Positions 2,968 to 28,672 of a DNA stretch of 64,000 bases are shown here, in pieces (the first letter of the stretch is position 1; each line of letters starts with the position of its first letter). Location of the stretch: the sequence record DRR723986_4177. The stretch is one strand, 5' to 3'. The notes under the pieces are model-generated. The model searched no databases and was not told the origin of the DNA. It was given only the letters and a program-made list of their open reading frames with translations. Position numbers and translations under genes: made by a program.

Positions 2968-3543
2968 CTAGCTTGCAGGTTTGTCTGGCACGTCAGGTAT
3001 GGAGACGCGGCCTGGCAAAACGAAACGCTCGATCAAAAGCACAAAGCATACAAACGCGAGTACATTCCATACCTTAACGAAGGCCACTGCAAGATAGATG
3101 CTACCACCCGCAATGGCCAGTAAGCCAAACACATAGAGCTTGCCGCGCTTTCTAACCGCATCTGCACGCTGTTGCAGCAGTGAAAGCCCCTCATCAAGCG
3201 GGGTTAAGCCTTCGACCAACCTATTTGTGAAGCGGTAGGTCATTAGCTGTCCGCCAACCAGAAAAGTCAAGATTCCGAACCCGTATATGGCTATGGTGTA
3301 AAAGTTTGGGTAATGGGTAAATCCTTGAACCCAACTCACCATCAGCGGCAATATAAAGGCGAAAAAAATCTGGGCAACACCATAGGAAGCAGCAATTCCC
3401 AGAAGTAGCGGCACAATTGAATATAGCCGCTTACCGCGCTTATAGCGCTTTTCTACATCAAGCGACACACGGTATGCTTTCGCTTCTCGTCCTGCGCGAA
3501 TAATAGCATCAGTTTTTGGCGGTCCCGGCTTCCATTTTGCCAT
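2968..3543 (-). CDS. Hypothetical membrane protein (about 4 TM)
   Basis: ATG at 3543 with GGGAG SD; hydrophobic segments; no family recognised. Confidence 0.65.
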   Translation of the reverse strand: MAKWKPGPPKTDAIIRAGREAKAYRVSLDVEKRYKRGKRLYSIVPLLLGIAASYGVAQIFFAFILPLMVSWVQGFTHYPNFYTIAIYGFGILTFLVGGQLMTYRFTNRLVEGLTPLDEGLSLLQQRADAVRKRGKLYVFGLLAIAGGSIYLAVAFVKVWNVLAFVCFVLLIERFVLPGRVSIPDVPDKPAS

Positions 3544-3689
3544 TGGTGCTCTCCCTTGCGAGTACAGTTTTGACAATAGTGCGTCCAAACGCAATATCTT
3601 TGATCGCCACAAACAAAAAAGCGTCAAAAAAAGCTACTGCGTCAACTTTTCAGGTTTGGCCCCGCGCTTAAGTGCCGTATAGGATACCT

Positions 3690-5207: not shown

Positions 5208-6028
5208 ATGAGCCTGAAAAACATCATTGCAGCGATAGTTCTGGGCGCAGCCACACCCGCAGTCTCTGCCGACGATACCATCAATCTTTACGCAATGGAC
5301 TGCGGCGCTGTTGATGTTAGGGACATGGCGCCCTTCGATAACAAGGGCCGGTTTGACGGCCAAAGCATCGTTTTGGCGAACCCGTGTTTTCTCATTCGCC
5401 ATCCCAAGGGTAACCTGTTGTGGGATACGGGCATGGAACAATCCCTCGCTGACATTCCCGAAGGCATTGGTGACAATTTCCATTTCACCACTAAACGAAA
5501 ACTGACCGATCAGCTCGCTGACTTGGGGCTTGCCCCTCAGACATTGACTTTTTATCCATCTCGCACTGGCACCCGGACCACAGCGGCAATGCCGGGCTTT
5601 TCGCAGCTTCAACATGGATTGTGAACCGCACAGAACGGGCCTTCATGTTTGCCGAGGAAAAGCCACAAGGCTTCGAGGATTATGCCGCCCTGGAGAGTGC
5701 GAAAACCATTCAGTTCGACGCAACCCACGACGTTTTCAGTGATGGCAGCACTGTCATCACATCCCTGCCCGGCCACACACCCGGCCATTCTGTATTGACC
5801 CTCAAACTGGACAAGGCGGGAACCCTGATGTTTTCCGGCGACTTGCATATATTTGCCGAAGGCCGGAAAGTGGGTGCCATTCCCACATTTAACTTTGATG
5901 CAGAAGCAACCGTGCCTTCCTTAAAGGCCTTTGCCGAAATGGCAGAGAAAACCCAAGCACGGGTGATCATCCAGCATGAAAAAGCGCATTTCGACGCCCT
6001 GCCCGAATTCCCGAAATATTTGAATTAA
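5208..6028 (+). pseudogene. Secreted N-acyl homoserine lactonase-family MBL-fold hydrolase split by a 1-nt deletion (or a sequencing error)
   Basis: Signal peptide and LLWDTG in the first frame; SHWHPDHSGN, PGHTPGH, FSGD and IQH in the next frame; one extra C in CCCC at 5533-5536 joins the frames. Confidence 0.85.
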
Positions 6029-6112: not shown

Positions 6113-7270
6113 ATGGAACTTCACAATATTTCGCGGCGAAAGCTGCTTGGCAGCATCGGCGCAGGCGCATTGGTCGCAGGGCTTACTGGTCCGGCATTGG
6201 CCGTTCGTGCGTTTGAAGGCGGTGCCCTGCCTTTCCGGCAAAATGCTGCTGAATTGCTGCTGCATTTCAATGAAAACTCGCTGGGCATGTCACCGCTGGC
6301 CACCGAAAGTGCGCGAGTGGCAGTGAATAATGCTGCCAACCGCTATGCGGATGATGCCATCATTGAGCTACGCGGCATGATCGCCCAAAACCACGGCGTA
6401 TCGATGGAGCAGGTGACGCTGGGCAATGGCTCCACCGAAGTTATCCGCGCGGTTGTGACAGCCGCCGCCCAATCAAACGCCACGGTTATTGAGCCCACGC
6501 CCACCTTTGGTGCTTTACAGCGCTATGCAAGTGCCGAGGGCATGGCGGTTAAAACTGTGCCGGTTGGTGCAGGTTTCATCACAGACATCAACACCCTGCG
6601 CGCATTAGCCGAGGCCACCGCTGGCCCTTTACTTATCAACATATGCAACCCCAATAACCCCACAGGCACCATTGTTGATGGATCGGCCCTGATGGATTGG
6701 ATTGAAAGCGCGCCAGTCGACCATATGTTCCTAATCGATGAAGCTTATTATGATTACGCTAAAGACAGCGATGGCTACATAAGCCTTGCAGCGGATGTTG
6801 CTGTGGGCCGTGAAAATGTTGTTGTGGCGCGCACTTTCTCAAAGATATACGGCATGGCTGGCATGCGGGTGGGCTACGGCATCTCTGGCCCTGAAACAGC
6901 CAAGCGCATCAATGCTTTTGCTGCTAACTTTAACTTAAGCGCAGCAGGAGTTTCTGCCGCCGTTACGTCCATGAAGGACCAAGCCTATTACGCCAAAAGC
7001 CTGGCGTCTAATGCTGCAGGCAAAGCCATTTTGATAGAAGCATTAGACCGCCTAGATTTGGCCTACATTCCAAGCCACACCAATTTCCTGTTGCACCGCA
7101 TTAGCGGTGACCTTGCAAGTTACCAGCAGCGCATGAAAGCAAACAACATTCGGGTGGGGCGGCGCATGACCGCCGAGGATGGTTGGTGCCGCCTGTCTAT
7201 TGGTACACCAGACGAAATGACCGAATTTGTGCGCACACTGAACGCCTTCCGCGACAAAGGTTGGGTTTAA
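6113..7270 (+). CDS. HisC-like class I/II PLP aminotransferase with Tat signal
   Basis: SRRKLL twin-Arg signal; NEN, GNGSTE, CNPNNPTG, IDEAY, RTFSKIYGMAGMRVGY. Confidence 0.88.
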   Translation: MELHNISRRKLLGSIGAGALVAGLTGPALAVRAFEGGALPFRQNAAELLLHFNENSLGMSPLATESARVAVNNAANRYADDAIIELRGMIAQNHGVSMEQVTLGNGSTEVIRAVVTAAAQSNATVIEPTPTFGALQRYASAEGMAVKTVPVGAGFITDINTLRALAEATAGPLLINICNPNNPTGTIVDGSALMDWIESAPVDHMFLIDEAYYDYAKDSDGYISLAADVAVGRENVVVARTFSKIYGMAGMRVGYGISGPETAKRINAFAANFNLSAAGVSAAVTSMKDQAYYAKSLASNAAGKAILIEALDRLDLAYIPSHTNFLLHRISGDLASYQQRMKANNIRVGRRMTAEDGWCRLSIGTPDEMTEFVRTLNAFRDKGWV

Positions 7271-7357: not shown

Positions 7358-8377
7358 ATGTCATCAAATTCATCATTTTCACGTAGAAACTTCATGGCAG
7401 CAACTGGTGCTGCAATTGGCGTAGGGAGCATGTTTGGCTCCAGCGCACGGGCAGATAGTTTCCCCACCTTCGGCAAAGTAGTTGAAGAACAGCCTTTCGC
7501 GCGCATTGAGGAAGTGGGCGAAGGCATTTGGGGTGTAGTCTCCACGCCTTTAAACCCGGACGGCAGTTTCAACCCGGCAGCAACCGCCACGCTGTGTAAC
7601 GGCGGTATTATTGCGGGAGAAGACAAGGTGGTAGCCATTGATGGTTCGTTCCGGCCCGAGGGGTCTGCGTGGCTTGCCGCACAAGCCCTACGCCTAACCG
7701 GCAAGCCGGTAACCGATGTGATTGTAACCCACTTCCATGCTGACCACACCGGCGGACTGGCGGGCTACCAGAACGGCGCAACAGGCCCTGAAATTATTGC
7801 CACGGCTACAACGGATAAGCTGATTTATGAGCGCTATTCAGGGGCAAAACAATCGCCCGAGGGTGCTCAGTTCGCGCGGCCCGCCATTCGTCCGGTTATG
7901 CCCACTCGCATCATCACTGATGAAACTTCCATCATTACGATGGACCTTGGCGGGCGCACCATCCGGCTGCATCCCCTTAAGGGCCATACCCCCAGTGACC
8001 TCGCGGTAGTAGTGGATGATGCGCCGGTTATTTTTGCGGGTGATCTTGTATGGGCCGGGTTATTCCATAATTATGTTGATGCCATTCCTAGCCATTTGAC
8101 CACTTCGGCCGAGCATTTGCTGTCCGACCCCAAGCGCACAATTGTCACCGGCCACGGTGCTATTGCCAATGCCGGTGACCTGAGCAGCTATGTGGACCTG
8201 TTAAGGCTGGTTGAAGAAAAAGCCCGCGCTTCATTCGAGGCTGGTAAAACACCAGCAGAAGGCGCGAAGGATTTTATGGTGCCTGCCTCGCTCGGGACAT
8301 GGCAATTGTTCAACCCGCGTTACTATGAAACTGCATTTGAAGCCTGGCGCCGCGAACTTGCAGGCGAAACCAGCTAA
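7358..8377 (+). CDS. Tat-exported MBL-fold metallo-hydrolase (cyclase-like)
   Basis: SRRNFM twin-Arg signal; THFHADH, GHTPSD, AGDL, TGHG. Confidence 0.85.
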   Translation: MSSNSSFSRRNFMAATGAAIGVGSMFGSSARADSFPTFGKVVEEQPFARIEEVGEGIWGVVSTPLNPDGSFNPAATATLCNGGIIAGEDKVVAIDGSFRPEGSAWLAAQALRLTGKPVTDVIVTHFHADHTGGLAGYQNGATGPEIIATATTDKLIYERYSGAKQSPEGAQFARPAIRPVMPTRIITDETSIITMDLGGRTIRLHPLKGHTPSDLAVVVDDAPVIFAGDLVWAGLFHNYVDAIPSHLTTSAEHLLSDPKRTIVTGHGAIANAGDLSSYVDLLRLVEEKARASFEAGKTPAEGAKDFMVPASLGTWQLFNPRYYETAFEAWRRELAGETS

Positions 8378-8521
8378 CAACCGCTACGCAACATAGGGCG
8401 GTGCGACGAAATGCCGTCAAAAAACCCGTGTTCTGTTCGACATTATACCGATAGTGTCGCCGAAATATTATTTTTTATTGGCATATACTGAACCTGTTTT
8501 GGAAGTAGCTGTAGTTTAACA

Positions 8522-8896
8522 ATGTCCTTCATCAGTTCCATACTGCCTGCACTGCTGCTTATTGCCTTTTCATCCAAAGCGCTCGTGCCGGTTGGTATGA
8601 TGCTGGACGTGAAATCATTTATGCATGGCGGTGACTTGGTCACCATTTGCCCTTCCGTGGGCAAGTTGCCGTGGATGACCGTATTCACCGACCACTCGGG
8701 CCACCATATGGCTGGGGTTGATGAAAATGCAGATGCGCGTTGCCCCTATGCGGCCTTGGACGCACCAGCGTCCTTTGATATGCCGGACGCACTATGGCTA
8801 TTTCTTCAACCTGACTATGAACAAACCGTTCTCCCGTCTGGTCAATACAGCAGCATCATTTTCAAACGCTCTGCAAGAGCGCCACCTGAAGTTTAG
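8522..8896 (+). CDS. DUF2946-like leader protein with C-terminal RAPP motif
   Basis: Hydrophobic N-terminus ending ALVPVGMM, ICP, His cluster DHSGHH, CPYA, C-terminal ARAPPEV. Confidence 0.75.
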   Translation: MSFISSILPALLLIAFSSKALVPVGMMLDVKSFMHGGDLVTICPSVGKLPWMTVFTDHSGHHMAGVDENADARCPYAALDAPASFDMPDALWLFLQPDYEQTVLPSGQYSSIIFKRSARAPPEV

Positions 8897-8938
8897 AGAA
8901 CTGAAAACCCTCTATACTTATACATAATTCAGGAAATA

Positions 8939-10036
8939 ATGATGAAATGCTTCGGCTTATCCGTTGCAGCGCTTGCATGCTGCACACCTGCATTCGCGCC
9001 GGTTTTTACGCCCGCCAATGCACACGATGTACATATAGAACCCCGCGCTTATGACCATGCCCCGATTGGGGTTATGGGAGACCATTTGCATAAAAAAGGC
9101 GAGTTTATGCTGTCTGCCCGCTACATGCGCATGGAAATGGAAGGCAACCGCATTGGCACCAATAGTGTAACGCCAGAACAAATAGCAACGACAATACCTA
9201 ACCAGTTTTTTGGCCAACCCATGCAACCACCAACCCTGCGGGTGGTGCCAACGACCATGCCTATGGATATGGTAATGCTGGGCGGCATGTATGCCCCTTC
9301 AGATACTGTGACCCTGATGGTTATGGGTATGTATGCAGAGCGCGAAATGGACCATATCACCTTTCAGGGCGGTATGGGGACGGACCGGCTCGGCGAATTC
9401 ACCACAGGTAGTAAAGGCTTTGGTGATACAAAAGTGGCGGCCCTGGTTCGCCTGTTTGATAATGTCACCCATAAGGTGCATTTCAATGCAGGCATTTCGG
9501 TGCCCACTGGTTCTATCAGCAAAGAAGACACCATCTTAACACCCATGGGCGGCACCCCAACGGTGCGCTTGCCGTATCAAATGCAGCTTGGGTCCGGCAC
9601 TTGGGACTTAGAGCCCGGTATTACTTATGTAGGCCATGAAGGCAATTGGAACTGGGGGGCGCAAGCGCGCGCAACCATCCGGCTTGGTCACAATGCGGCC
9701 AACTATAGCTTTGGCGACCGGTTTGAAGCGACAAGCTGGCTAGCATACGGCCTAACGGATTCTTTCTCGGTATCCACCCGTCTGAAAGCCGAAACACAAG
9801 GCACTATTGACGGGCAGGATGCCCGCGTTGTGGCGCCGGTACAAACCGCCCAAACAGATTTTCAGAGCGGAGAACGGATAGATATGCTTTTTGGTGCCAA
9901 CTACCTTTTCAAGGCGGGTGCACTCAAAGGCAACCGTTTAGGCATTGAAGCTGGCTTTCCTGTAACGCAAGACCTGAACGGCCCGCATTTGGAGACAGAT
10001 TTCACCCTTACATTGGGCTGGCAGATTGCCTTTTGA
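8939..10036 (+). CDS. Outer-membrane beta-barrel transporter, His/Met-rich (putative metal uptake)
   Basis: Signal peptide, DHAPIGVMGDHLH, GFGD, PTGS, MQLGSGTWD, C-terminal GWQIAF beta-signal. Confidence 0.78.
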   Translation: MMKCFGLSVAALACCTPAFAPVFTPANAHDVHIEPRAYDHAPIGVMGDHLHKKGEFMLSARYMRMEMEGNRIGTNSVTPEQIATTIPNQFFGQPMQPPTLRVVPTTMPMDMVMLGGMYAPSDTVTLMVMGMYAEREMDHITFQGGMGTDRLGEFTTGSKGFGDTKVAALVRLFDNVTHKVHFNAGISVPTGSISKEDTILTPMGGTPTVRLPYQMQLGSGTWDLEPGITYVGHEGNWNWGAQARATIRLGHNAANYSFGDRFEATSWLAYGLTDSFSVSTRLKAETQGTIDGQDARVVAPVQTAQTDFQSGERIDMLFGANYLFKAGALKGNRLGIEAGFPVTQDLNGPHLETDFTLTLGWQIAF

Positions 10037-28192: not shown

Positions 28193-28672
28193 TTAATCTT
28201 CGTCGTTGAGGCCAACAACCTCAGGGTAATTCACATCGGCTTTCTTAATGAAGCCCGGAATATCGACTTCCCAGTCAGCTTTCACCTCAGCGTTATAGTT
28301 AAGGTACAGCTTGCCATCGACGATTTTCCACTGCTCGGGGTCACCGCTGGCTTTATAGCCGCCTGCCATAGCCCAAGCGCAGTAGCCACCATATTGAGGG
28401 GCGTATTTTGTTGGGTCCGCAAGGAACTTATCCAGGTTTTCCTGGCTTGAGAAACGCCACTTGGTATCCATATATTCGGTCTGGAACTTCTTGCTACCTT
28501 CTACCGGCTTTCCTTCAGTGAAGTAAGCAACGGCGTCATAGCCGCTTACGGCAGTACTGCTGAAAACACCGGTATAAATTGGGTCGTCTGCGGCGGTTGC
28601 AGCGCCTGTTGCTACAACACTGCCCAATGCAATGAATGCTGCGGTCATAAAAGATTTGAATAATTTGGTCAC
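28193..28672 (-). CDS. Exported YHS-domain protein
   Basis: GYDAVAYF, WRFSSQEN, YAPQYGGYCAWAM, DGKLYLNY; signal peptide. Confidence 0.88.
   Translation of the reverse strand: MTKLFKSFMTAAFIALGSVVATGAATAADDPIYTGVFSSTAVSGYDAVAYFTEGKPVEGSKKFQTEYMDTKWRFSSQENLDKFLADPTKYAPQYGGYCAWAMAGGYKASGDPEQWKIVDGKLYLNYNAEVKADWEVDIPGFIKKADVNYPEVVGLNDED

Follow-up and report, generated by a model that had tools for sequence, protein, structure and literature searches.

We analyzed a stretch of DNA of 64,000 nucleotides from the record DRR723986_4177 (the window, by which the whole stretch is meant), and in it a 124-codon open reading frame (ORF) on the plus strand (8522..8896), which ends in RAPPEV-stop, together with the same-strand gene that follows it. 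We slightly favor the view that this ORF, here called the leader, and the downstream gene, whose product is a predicted outer-membrane barrel, make up a two-gene module of the CruR/CutF (DUF2946) type that works as a CutF-like translational switch. The evidence comes from the family of the leader, its RAPP motif, a hairpin around its stop codon, and the pairing of the barrel gene's Shine-Dalgarno (SD) sequence. An earlier note on this DNA had pointed out the 124-amino-acid (aa) ORF, its N terminus (described as export-type and found here to be hydrophobic), and the motifs ICP, DHSGHHM, CPYA, and RAPP, all of which we confirmed in the sequence. Its comparison of a RAPP-tailed, export-type leader directly before a same-strand gene with the CruR/CutF architecture was also supported.

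Assignment of the leader to DUF2946

As the earlier note had suggested, the leader was compared with DUF2946. It matched Pfam PF11162 (DUF2946) over the full span of the profile (positions 7-117 of 117; E = 2.1e-4) with 22.4 bits, a score just under the gathering cutoff of 23.7. A word-indexed search yielded 14 leader homologues out of 28 candidates, and those with 74-87% identity bear the PF11162 annotation. Furthermore, a HMMER search with the clade profile against 1.84 billion cluster representatives returned 10 proteins at E<=1e-3 and 3 at E<=1e-10; one of the 10, P0018, was rejected as a spurious repetitive protein. Since this exhaustive search gave just 10 proteins at E<=1e-3, the leader clade is small and divergent. 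A wider profile, in which weak matches were included, retrieved 309 proteins, and PF11162 was found on most of the 120 matches listed.

Three alignments were used for comparison: A1 of the leader clade (15 sequences), A3 of the wider profile (12 sequences), and A8 (32 PF11162-annotated proteins). When A1 was compared with A8 using hhalign, a probability of 98.9% was obtained (E = 2.8e-17). The invariant skeleton VP.G.M - G - C - C[PA][FY] - R[AG]PP, with its last element near the C terminus, is common to all three. In A1, 35 columns are invariant, most of them in the N-terminal two thirds, and these include two Cys, one His, and one Met. Judging from the profile comparisons, we classify the leader as a divergent member of DUF2946, the family of CruR and CutF. 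NCBIfam holds no family for the leader and none for the barrel. A chance ORF was ruled out by protein conservation with synonymous codon turnover. The window probably originates from a Kordiimonas-type alphaproteobacterium, because the best leader matches are in Kordiimonas and Kordiimonadaceae genomes. The features of the leader are as follows.

8522..8896, plus strand: leader ORF, assigned to the single-Cys branch of the DUF2946 (CruR/CutF) family (ORF list, Pfam, hhalign, 14 close homologues).
8522..8578, plus strand: N-terminal hydrophobic segment, residues 1-19, a putative export signal or membrane anchor (sequence; AlphaFold2 helix 3-19).
8648..8650, plus strand: codon of Cys43 (in ICP), the first Cys; invariant in A1, A3, and the corresponding column of A8.
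8690..8710, plus strand: DHSGHHM cluster; Asp57, His58, and Met63 invariant in A1.
8741..8752, plus strand: C-P-Y-A, the single-Cys form of the CxxC position of the family, 45 residues before Arg119.
8876..8887, plus strand: R-A-P-P, putative arrest motif (AGA GCG CCA CCT), residues 119-122 of 124 (sequence; conservation).

The hydrophobic stretch, as read from the sequence, comprises approximately residues 5-18 (SSILPALLLIAFSS). A basic residue ahead of it is present in the homologues (A1) and absent from the window leader. According to PMC9426467, more than 95% of the DUF2946 family is export-type. In the AlphaFold2 model of the leader, computed with a 15-sequence alignment, helix 3-19 was the sole confident element, and the predicted local distance difference test (pLDDT) value was 44.2, which is more in keeping with a regulatory nascent chain than with a folded protein. 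At this pLDDT the model was unusable as a guide to a metal site. No recognizable SD sequence lies 5-10 nucleotides (nt) upstream of the leader start codon (window 8480-8524); the nearest purine run is GGAAG at 8501-8505, 16 nt upstream.

A putative arrest motif next to the stop codon

In the window, RAPP is followed by GAA GTT and then TAG at 8894-8896, two codons before the stop. It is retained in 14 of the 15 proteins of A1. Moreover, a scan of species-representative genomes detected seven orthologous Kordiimonas-type loci (L001-L007), which together with the window are the eight loci considered below; all of them are related, so that p-values are optimistic. In each of the seven, the leader ends in R(A/G)PP plus 1-2 residues and is followed by a spacer of 40-47 nt, CAGGA, and the ATG of a barrel homologue. 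Six of these loci have RAPP and one has RGPP, and in all eight the motif stands 1-2 codons ahead of the stop (two codons lie between the last Pro codon and the stop, one in L003). Five different Arg codons (AGA, CGC, AGG, CGG, and CGA) occur among the eight loci, from which we conclude that the Arg residue, not the RNA, is under selection.

The motif was also followed in 126 relatives, 22 of them from the close-homologue and HMMER searches (P0018 excluded) and 104 from the matches listed in the wider search. This sample is biased, since the query profile itself is single-Cys. Many of the relatives are PF11162-annotated. RAPP was found in 75 and RGPP in 40 relatives, 1-8 residues from the C terminus in 116; a recognizable R[AG]PP-like motif was absent in 9.

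Structures of ApdA and ApdP arrest complexes are reported to have the P site occupied by RAP and the A site by Pro (PMC10951233). In PMC12992588, toeprints are described that place the in vitro arrest of CruR at the same codons, RAPP is reported to be refractory to elongation factor P (EF-P), and RAPP/RGPP is described as strongly avoided in bacterial proteomes unless it serves arrest. Taken together, the motif, its conservation, and the literature suggest that ribosomes would arrest at the RAPP of the leader.

A hairpin that holds the leader stop codon

The RNA features between the end of the leader and the barrel start are listed below; the structures are minimum free energy (MFE) predictions.

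8885..8890, plus strand: 5' arm of the outer stem, CCUGAA (last Pro and Glu codons), putative anti-SD (MFE; 0.71 of the SD pairing mass in the window falls on the RAPP-to-stop region).
8889..8919, plus strand: inner hairpin with the 5' arm at 8889-8898 (holding the stop codon 8894-8896), the loop at 8899-8909, and the 3' arm at 8910-8919 (MFE structures; 8/8 loci).
8928..8934, plus strand: 3' arm of the outer stem, UUCAGG (8928-8933), overlapping the SD sequence AGGA at 8931-8934 (sequence; CAGGA invariant in 8/8 loci).

Both pairings that the earlier note had described are present: 8889-8898 (AAGTTTAGAG) matches the complement of 8910-8919 (CTCTATACTT) except for a single T-T mismatch, and 8885-8890 (CCTGAA) that of 8928-8933 (TTCAGG), which overlaps AGGA. 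RNAfold, the check proposed there, returned exactly the predicted two-tier hairpin as the MFE structure (-11.6 kcal/mol), although taken alone this fold is no better than chance, as detailed below.

In all eight loci, the stop codon lies inside the 5' arm of the hairpin with a pairing probability of 0.92-1.00. When the spacers were shuffled, the observed pairing of the stop was attained in 47, 21, 38, 8, 24, 1, 15, and 7 of 300 shuffles, respectively, corresponding to a Fisher's combined p of 4.5e-5 if the loci are taken as independent, which is optimistic for related loci. Two loci use TAG as the stop codon, four use TGA, and two use TAA, with matching changes in the 3' arm. The pairs are A:U in four loci, G:U in one, and G:C in three at stop position 2; G:C in two and A:U in six at stop position 3; and A:U in three, G:U in one, and G:C in four at the base after the stop. 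With 3' arms permuted among the loci, the observed 32 of 32 paired cells were attained in 11 of 5,000 trials (mean, 27.5); the observed value is true by construction, the pairs having been read from the MFE structure of each locus. We conclude from these patterns that the hairpin is conserved with covarying arms, and it is by virtue of its conservation across loci, not of the window fold alone, that it rises above chance.

If the first Pro codon occupies the P site, the stem starts at approximately +8 to +10 and the stop is located at +13 to +15. Given this start of the stem, an arrested ribosome would hold the 5' arm open. An intrinsic terminator was rejected as an identity of the hairpin, which has no T run after it, as was a known riboswitch or small RNA, no Rfam family being detected in 8350-9100 at E<=1. 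Scans for intrinsic terminators and promoters between leader and barrel gave chance-level results only.

Predicted pairing of the barrel Shine-Dalgarno sequence with the leader

In free mRNA, at least about half of the SD pairing mass falls on leader-coding sequence in six of the eight loci, with L003 as a seventh at 0.47. The conserved feature is that the SD tends to pair with the 3' coding sequence of the leader, and therefore translation of the barrel should depend on ribosomes there. The form of the pairing differs among loci. In L002, L004, L005, and L006, the predicted SD partner is located upstream of the Arg codon, within the leader coding sequence. In L004, for instance, positions ~6301-6312 and 6372-6383 form a perfect match of 12 base pairs (bp) between the K-I-L-I codons of the leader and the SD region of the barrel; this anti-SD, which lies ~24 nt upstream of the Arg codon and is 7-8 bp long in L005 and L006, differs from that of the window. 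The CCUG/CAGG clamp is accordingly one local solution. The last Pro codon is CCU in five of the eight loci, even though of all Pro codons in the window CCU is used least (134 of 691); this bias is a hint of selection for SD pairing.

Of the two stems in the earlier note, the stop-codon hairpin proved conserved and covarying in 8/8 loci, whereas the outer CCUG/CAGG clamp is dominant in only three. Likewise, the masking of the SD by CCUG/CAGG held for the window, L003, and L007, but not for the four loci with another partner or for L001, in which the SD is largely open; altogether, the SD is only slightly masked in two loci. In the window MFE structure with 30 nt of upstream context, CAUCAUU (8854-8860) additionally pairs with AAUGAUG (8938-8944), covering both barrel ATGs; no such pairing was seen in the other loci.

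The influence of an arrested ribosome was estimated from the unpaired probability of AGGA in free mRNA (folded together with 60 nt upstream and 30 nt downstream) and with the footprint (P-14 to P+15) blocked:

Window: 0.24 free, 0.38 with the footprint blocked.
L001: 0.68 free, 0.77 with the footprint blocked.
L002: 0.46 free, 0.47 with the footprint blocked.
L003: 0.23 free, 0.38 with the footprint blocked.
L004: 0.00 free, 0.00 with the footprint blocked.
L005: 0.01 free, 0.18 with the footprint blocked.
L006: 0.01 free, 0.03 with the footprint blocked.
L007: 0.25 free, 0.63 with the footprint blocked.

A larger opening of the SD was obtained only if all upstream sequence was also single-stranded, as with queued ribosomes.

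Weighing the switch against polarity and plain coupling

In addition to the Pfam score below the gathering cutoff, several observations weigh against the proposed switch. The SD masking varies in form, with a partner in the RAPP-to-stop region in 3/8 loci only, and in L001 the SD is largely open (0.68 unpaired). Blocking of the footprint alone lifts the SD accessibility little in the window (0.24 to 0.38) and gives no rise in L004 and L006, whose anti-SD sits behind the arrested ribosome. Furthermore, the masking in the window is unexceptional, since 15% of the 110 plus-strand AGGA sites are at least as masked as this SD. The window hairpin is by itself nonsignificant (z = -1.31), since an equally good fold was reached by 25 of 200 dinucleotide shuffles. 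When the eight spacer regions were aligned with MAFFT and passed to RNAalifold, no consensus structure was obtained, the arms being out of register, and MAFFT likewise left the arms out of register when the hairpins were cut flush at the stop codon and its partner. A covariance model built from three loci found seven of the eight loci (E<=10) plus one reverse-strand match; it missed L003 and aligned L005 and L007 poorly. The covariation count thus rests on a custom, stop-anchored table. Finally, apart from a distant YHS-domain ORF, no copper gene was detected by Pfam in the 64-kb window.

The weak or absent unmasking by a single footprint in several loci would suit a polarity mechanism like that of CruR, the best-studied RAPP family member, which works via Rho-linked polarity (PMC9426467). 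The arrested ribosome would then block Rho (or an RNase) instead of freeing the SD; upon relief of the arrest, the leader would terminate, the barrel would be poorly translated, and Rho would stop transcription inside the barrel gene. However, the leader-barrel spacer is 42 nt long in the window, 40-47 nt in the other loci, and A/U-rich in 8/8, whereas the 162-nt region of CruR is reported to hold a Rho-dependent terminator (PMC9426467), and short spacers have been argued to suit a stem-loop mode (PMC9973294). Polarity also gives the conserved stop-codon hairpin no role, and we consider it unlikely.

The position of the SD partner bears on another explanation. In four of the eight loci it lies upstream of the arrest site, where any translating ribosome would open it, and in 8/8 loci the hairpin holds the stop codon itself. 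Both would be expected if leader and barrel were plainly coupled, with any ribosome that finishes the leader opening the leader-SD pairing and the hairpin. RAPP would then be inherited with little regulatory effect, and the hairpin would mainly stabilize the mRNA or position terminating ribosomes near the SD. Such coupling is hard to reconcile with the avoidance of RAPP/RGPP in proteomes described in PMC12992588: here the motif is kept, with turnover of the Arg codon, 1-2 codons from the stop. Neither would it need the conserved N-terminal two thirds of the leader with invariant Cys, His, and Met. We therefore rate plain coupling as quite improbable, and the CutF-like switch is the reading followed below.

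Candidate sensor residues and the single Cys

Cys74 and Pro75 of C-P-Y-A are invariant (A1, A3), whereas His61 and His62 of DHSGHHM are not conserved across the clade (A1). The motif of the leader clade is C-P-Y-A (once C-P-F-A and once C-P-Y-S), and CxxC occurs in none of the 15 members. Among the 126 relatives, in which the Cys nearest to Arg and 35-60 residues upstream of it was scored, 115 have a single Cys at the motif position; CxxC and CxxxC were each found in 0, CxC in 1, and no Cys in 1. The distance from Cys to Arg is 45 residues in the window leader (Cys74-Arg119) and 45-50 in nearly all relatives examined.

The earlier note was thus right that the second Cys is replaced and CxxC lacking, but the unusual metal chemistry that it derived from this is not borne out, the single Cys being common and the residues suiting copper. 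Indeed, the single-Cys motif appears typical of a large DUF2946 branch and hence unremarkable in this leader, and CxxC/CxxxC would define the studied members, not the whole family. The description of DUF2946 as "CXXC plus RAPP" (PMC9426467) suits the branch of CruR. According to PMC9973294, DUF2946-like leaders form 29 sequence clusters with Cys, His, or mixed motifs, not all of which were judged copper-specific; varied Cys/His motifs and targets and the possible sensing of metals other than Cu are thereby already published for the family. In our case, two invariant Cys, one His, and one Met, together with a Met/His-rich barrel, suit copper at least as well as other metals. A tblastn search of plasmids with P0156, a single-Cys DUF2946 protein, gave no match.

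The conserved Cys, His, and Met residues, and the leader-barrel pairing kept in the six loci that extend downstream, would also be accounted for if the leader were a stable protein, periplasmic or anchored in the membrane, that binds metal as a partner of the barrel (its chaperone or gate), with the two genes adjacent by joint function. We judge this very improbable: AlphaFold2 gave no fold (pLDDT 44.2), CutF is reported to be undetectable in vivo and to act solely in cis (PMC9973294), and the C-terminal RAPP and the stop hairpin would be left unexplained.

The downstream gene encodes a predicted outer-membrane barrel

8939..10036, plus strand: downstream gene, predicted 365-aa outer-membrane, 12-stranded barrel with the COG4313/FapF fold (Pfam, AlphaFold2, Foldseek, conservation).

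Of the two tandem in-frame ATGs of this gene (8939 and 8942), the second has the more usual gap of 7 nt from AGGA, and the orthologues begin MK(R/P); the second ATG, 8942, is the likely start. The product matched Pfam PF13557 with 24.7 bits (cutoff, 22), and the L005 orthologue with 31.7 bits. It was modeled by AlphaFold2 with a pLDDT of 86.8, and the top Foldseek matches were FapF (5o65) and the COG4313 protein Pput2725 (4rl8), with E ~1e-13. The Atlas neighbors are PF13557 clusters, and 3,781 homologues were found at E<=1e-5; a PDB sequence search gave no match. We conclude that the product is an outer-membrane barrel with a predicted 12 strands. The target is therefore a barrel, as the earlier note had proposed, and not a TonB receptor or an oxidase, but with 365 residues and 12 strands it is not the small one described there.

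In 26 homologues with at least 56% identity, the invariant residues comprise His40, Asp48, His49, and His51 in the N-terminal segment, His139, and numerous Met residues; one M-x-M-x-M-x-M strand contributes M107, M111, and M113 to these, and another alternating strand (M-x-M-x-M) contributes M127. Clusters of Met and His residues are characteristic of Cu(I)/Cu(II) sites, and the invariant His residues and Met ladders suggest copper, or a soft metal, as the metal linked to the barrel. In the literature on COG4313/PF13557/Phenol_MetA_deg, no copper link appeared in the titles or abstract openings of the matches listed.

Five regions with plasmid homologues of the barrel (30-39% identical) were compared (L008-L012), the Methylocystis regions L011 and L012 being read from annotation tables alone. 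The plasmid homologues of Ruegeria and Methylosinus retain the Met ladders, whereas the nitrate-linked Methylocystis homologues have lost them. The latter (30-32% identity), annotated as 'alpha-amylase,' a name that looks wrong, adjoin the nitrate-assimilation genes ANTAR, NrtA, and nirB. Because they adjoin nitrate genes and lack Met ladders, the barrel superfamily seems to serve more than one substrate. No RAPP ORF was found upstream of the barrel homologue in the two Ruegeria regions (L008 and L010). In L009 (Methylosinus sp. C49 plasmid pMSC49c), an ORF at 3110-3640, which is missing from the PLSDB gene table, ends in RAPPRA-stop. It has a Cys-rich stretch ~55 residues before RAPP and no Pfam match at E<=0.01, and it is located 139 nt upstream of a gene for a 738-aa fused outer-membrane protein, the C-terminal half of which is 35% identical to the window barrel. 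This gene is followed by feoB/feoC, and a PepSY-TM gene precedes. From this arrangement, control of the barrel family by RAPP leaders seems to extend to a second lineage.

Gene neighborhood

Leader and barrel lie on the same strand with a short spacer between them, an operon-type layout in which the leader would be the first gene. As identified by Pfam, the gene order in the window is a metallo-beta-lactamase (MBL)-fold gene, the leader, the barrel, PmbA/TldD, and an inositol-monophosphatase-family gene. In the six loci that extend far enough, the ORF sizes agree with this order and the leader-barrel pairing is kept; gene names in the loci derive from the window Pfam scans, the ORFs scanned in the loci themselves being the MBL-fold ORF of L003 and the barrels of L003 and L005. 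The Pfam pass revealed ordinary chromosomal genes in the rest of the window. Because no other metal gene is nearby, the module seems to consist of leader and barrel alone.

Three further observations concern the window. At 5208-6028, two ORFs (138 aa and 135 aa, with a 4-nt overlap) match N- and C-terminal parts of the MBL fold and look like one gene broken by a frameshift or a sequencing error. The YHS-domain ORF (159 aa; 28196-28672, minus strand) is located 19 kb from the leader, and no link between them was seen; the YHS domain is often metal-binding. At 49003-51432 (plus strand), an 810-aa protein is encoded, in which RTX calcium-binding nonapeptide repeats form seven stretches and the C-terminal region is of the serralysin type.

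Proposed mechanism and relation to known systems

According to the switch that we favor, the leader would be translated, and its N-terminal hydrophobic segment would bring the nascent chain to the Sec translocon. The ribosome would then arrest at RAPP, with RAP occupying the P site and Pro the A site, at which point approximately the first 60-80 residues would be out, including Cys43, Asp57-His58, and perhaps Met63 and Cys74. What these residues encounter in the periplasm, most likely copper, plus a possible Cys43-Cys74 disulfide, would set the duration of the arrest. The arrested ribosome would cover the A-site CCUG and the start of the stop-codon hairpin (stem at approximately +8 to +10 from the first P-site base), and leader sequence otherwise paired to the CAGGA SD would be kept open, so that the barrel would be translated; arrest would mean ON. 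We infer the arrest itself, the export dependence, the SD unmasking, the identity of the metal, and the direction in which it acts. Arrest could be promoted by the metal, as with CutF, or relieved by it, as with CruR. Because the barrel looks like a passive channel without an efflux partner nearby, we lean weakly toward an uptake channel that would be switched off once the metal is abundant (the CruR sign).

CutF of Rhodobacter capsulatus (cutFOG), which is DUF2946-like and acts in cis, has a similarly short spacer, within which lies a stem-loop involving the following gene's SD (PMC9973294). It differs in having CxxxC plus two further Cys, an EF-P-responsive PPP, and a Tat-exported multicopper oxidase as the target, whereas the window leader has one motif Cys and one distal Cys, RAPP, and a predicted Sec-exported outer-membrane barrel as the target. 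CruR (Bp2923) of Bordetella pertussis belongs to the same Pfam family and, as described in PMC9426467, has an export-type N terminus and a semiconserved upstream Cys, is encoded by the first gene of its operon, and carries RAPP 2-3 residues before the C terminus; the distances from C90 and C93 to R139 (49 and 46) represent a functionally important spacing. In contrast to the window locus, with its C-P-Y-A, its 42-nt spacer with the stop-codon hairpin, and no TonB-dependent receptor gene after the leader, CruR is reported there to have CxxC and Rho-dependent termination in a spacer of 162 nt, and to target a TonB-dependent transporter together with a PepSY protein.

ApdA, ApdP, and the RAPP/RGPP peptides of Streptomyces lividans share with the leader a RAPP at the C terminus of a small protein, secretory or membrane-bound, whose coding sequence lies upstream of the gene that is regulated (PMC12992588). 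In this 2025 survey, an S. lividans RAPP peptide beside a metal gene is described with two separated conserved Cys and a His cluster, resembling Cys43, His58, and Cys74. However, ApdA and ApdP monitor Sec/YidC components and, outside the motif, have no sequence homology to the leader. The barrel, in turn, shares its predicted 12-stranded fold with Pput2725 (PDB 4RL8) and FapF (PDB 5O65), with template modeling (TM) scores of 0.71-0.78 normalized to the target. Its identity to them is only 13-15%, they are linked to hydrophobic substrates or amyloid secretion, and the subfamily of the window barrel has a His-rich N-terminal segment and Met ladders as features of its own.

Because both the mechanism and the range of motifs and targets have been published before, the locus is a further example of a known leader-peptide switch family and no new category. 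In the literature searched, no experimental study of a single-Cys DUF2946 sensor or of a COG4313-like target was found. The locus is a compact and clean example of the single-Cys branch, with a 42-nt spacer, a covarying stop-codon hairpin, and one target gene. It is suited for asking whether the mechanism works without CxxC, which metal is read, and what the cargo of the Met/His-rich, COG4313-like barrel is.

A broader picture is offered tentatively, and we hold it to be rather doubtful as a whole. The barrel family may comprise widespread, TonB-independent outer-membrane channels for copper or a soft metal, with the His segment and the M-x-M-x-M ladders forming a lining or a plug. In Kordiimonas-type bacteria, synthesis of the channel would be governed by a single-Cys DUF2946 nascent chain sensing periplasmic metal via Cys43, His58, Met63, and Cys74, and the stop-codon hairpin would be the RNA half of the switch. 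To our knowledge, nascent-chain sensing of periplasmic metal has been worked out for CruR and CutF only, both of which have paired Cys. If the picture is true, the large single-Cys branch of DUF2946 would provide the CruR/CutF mechanism with a second sensor chemistry, and metal would have in the barrel a new way across the outer membrane.

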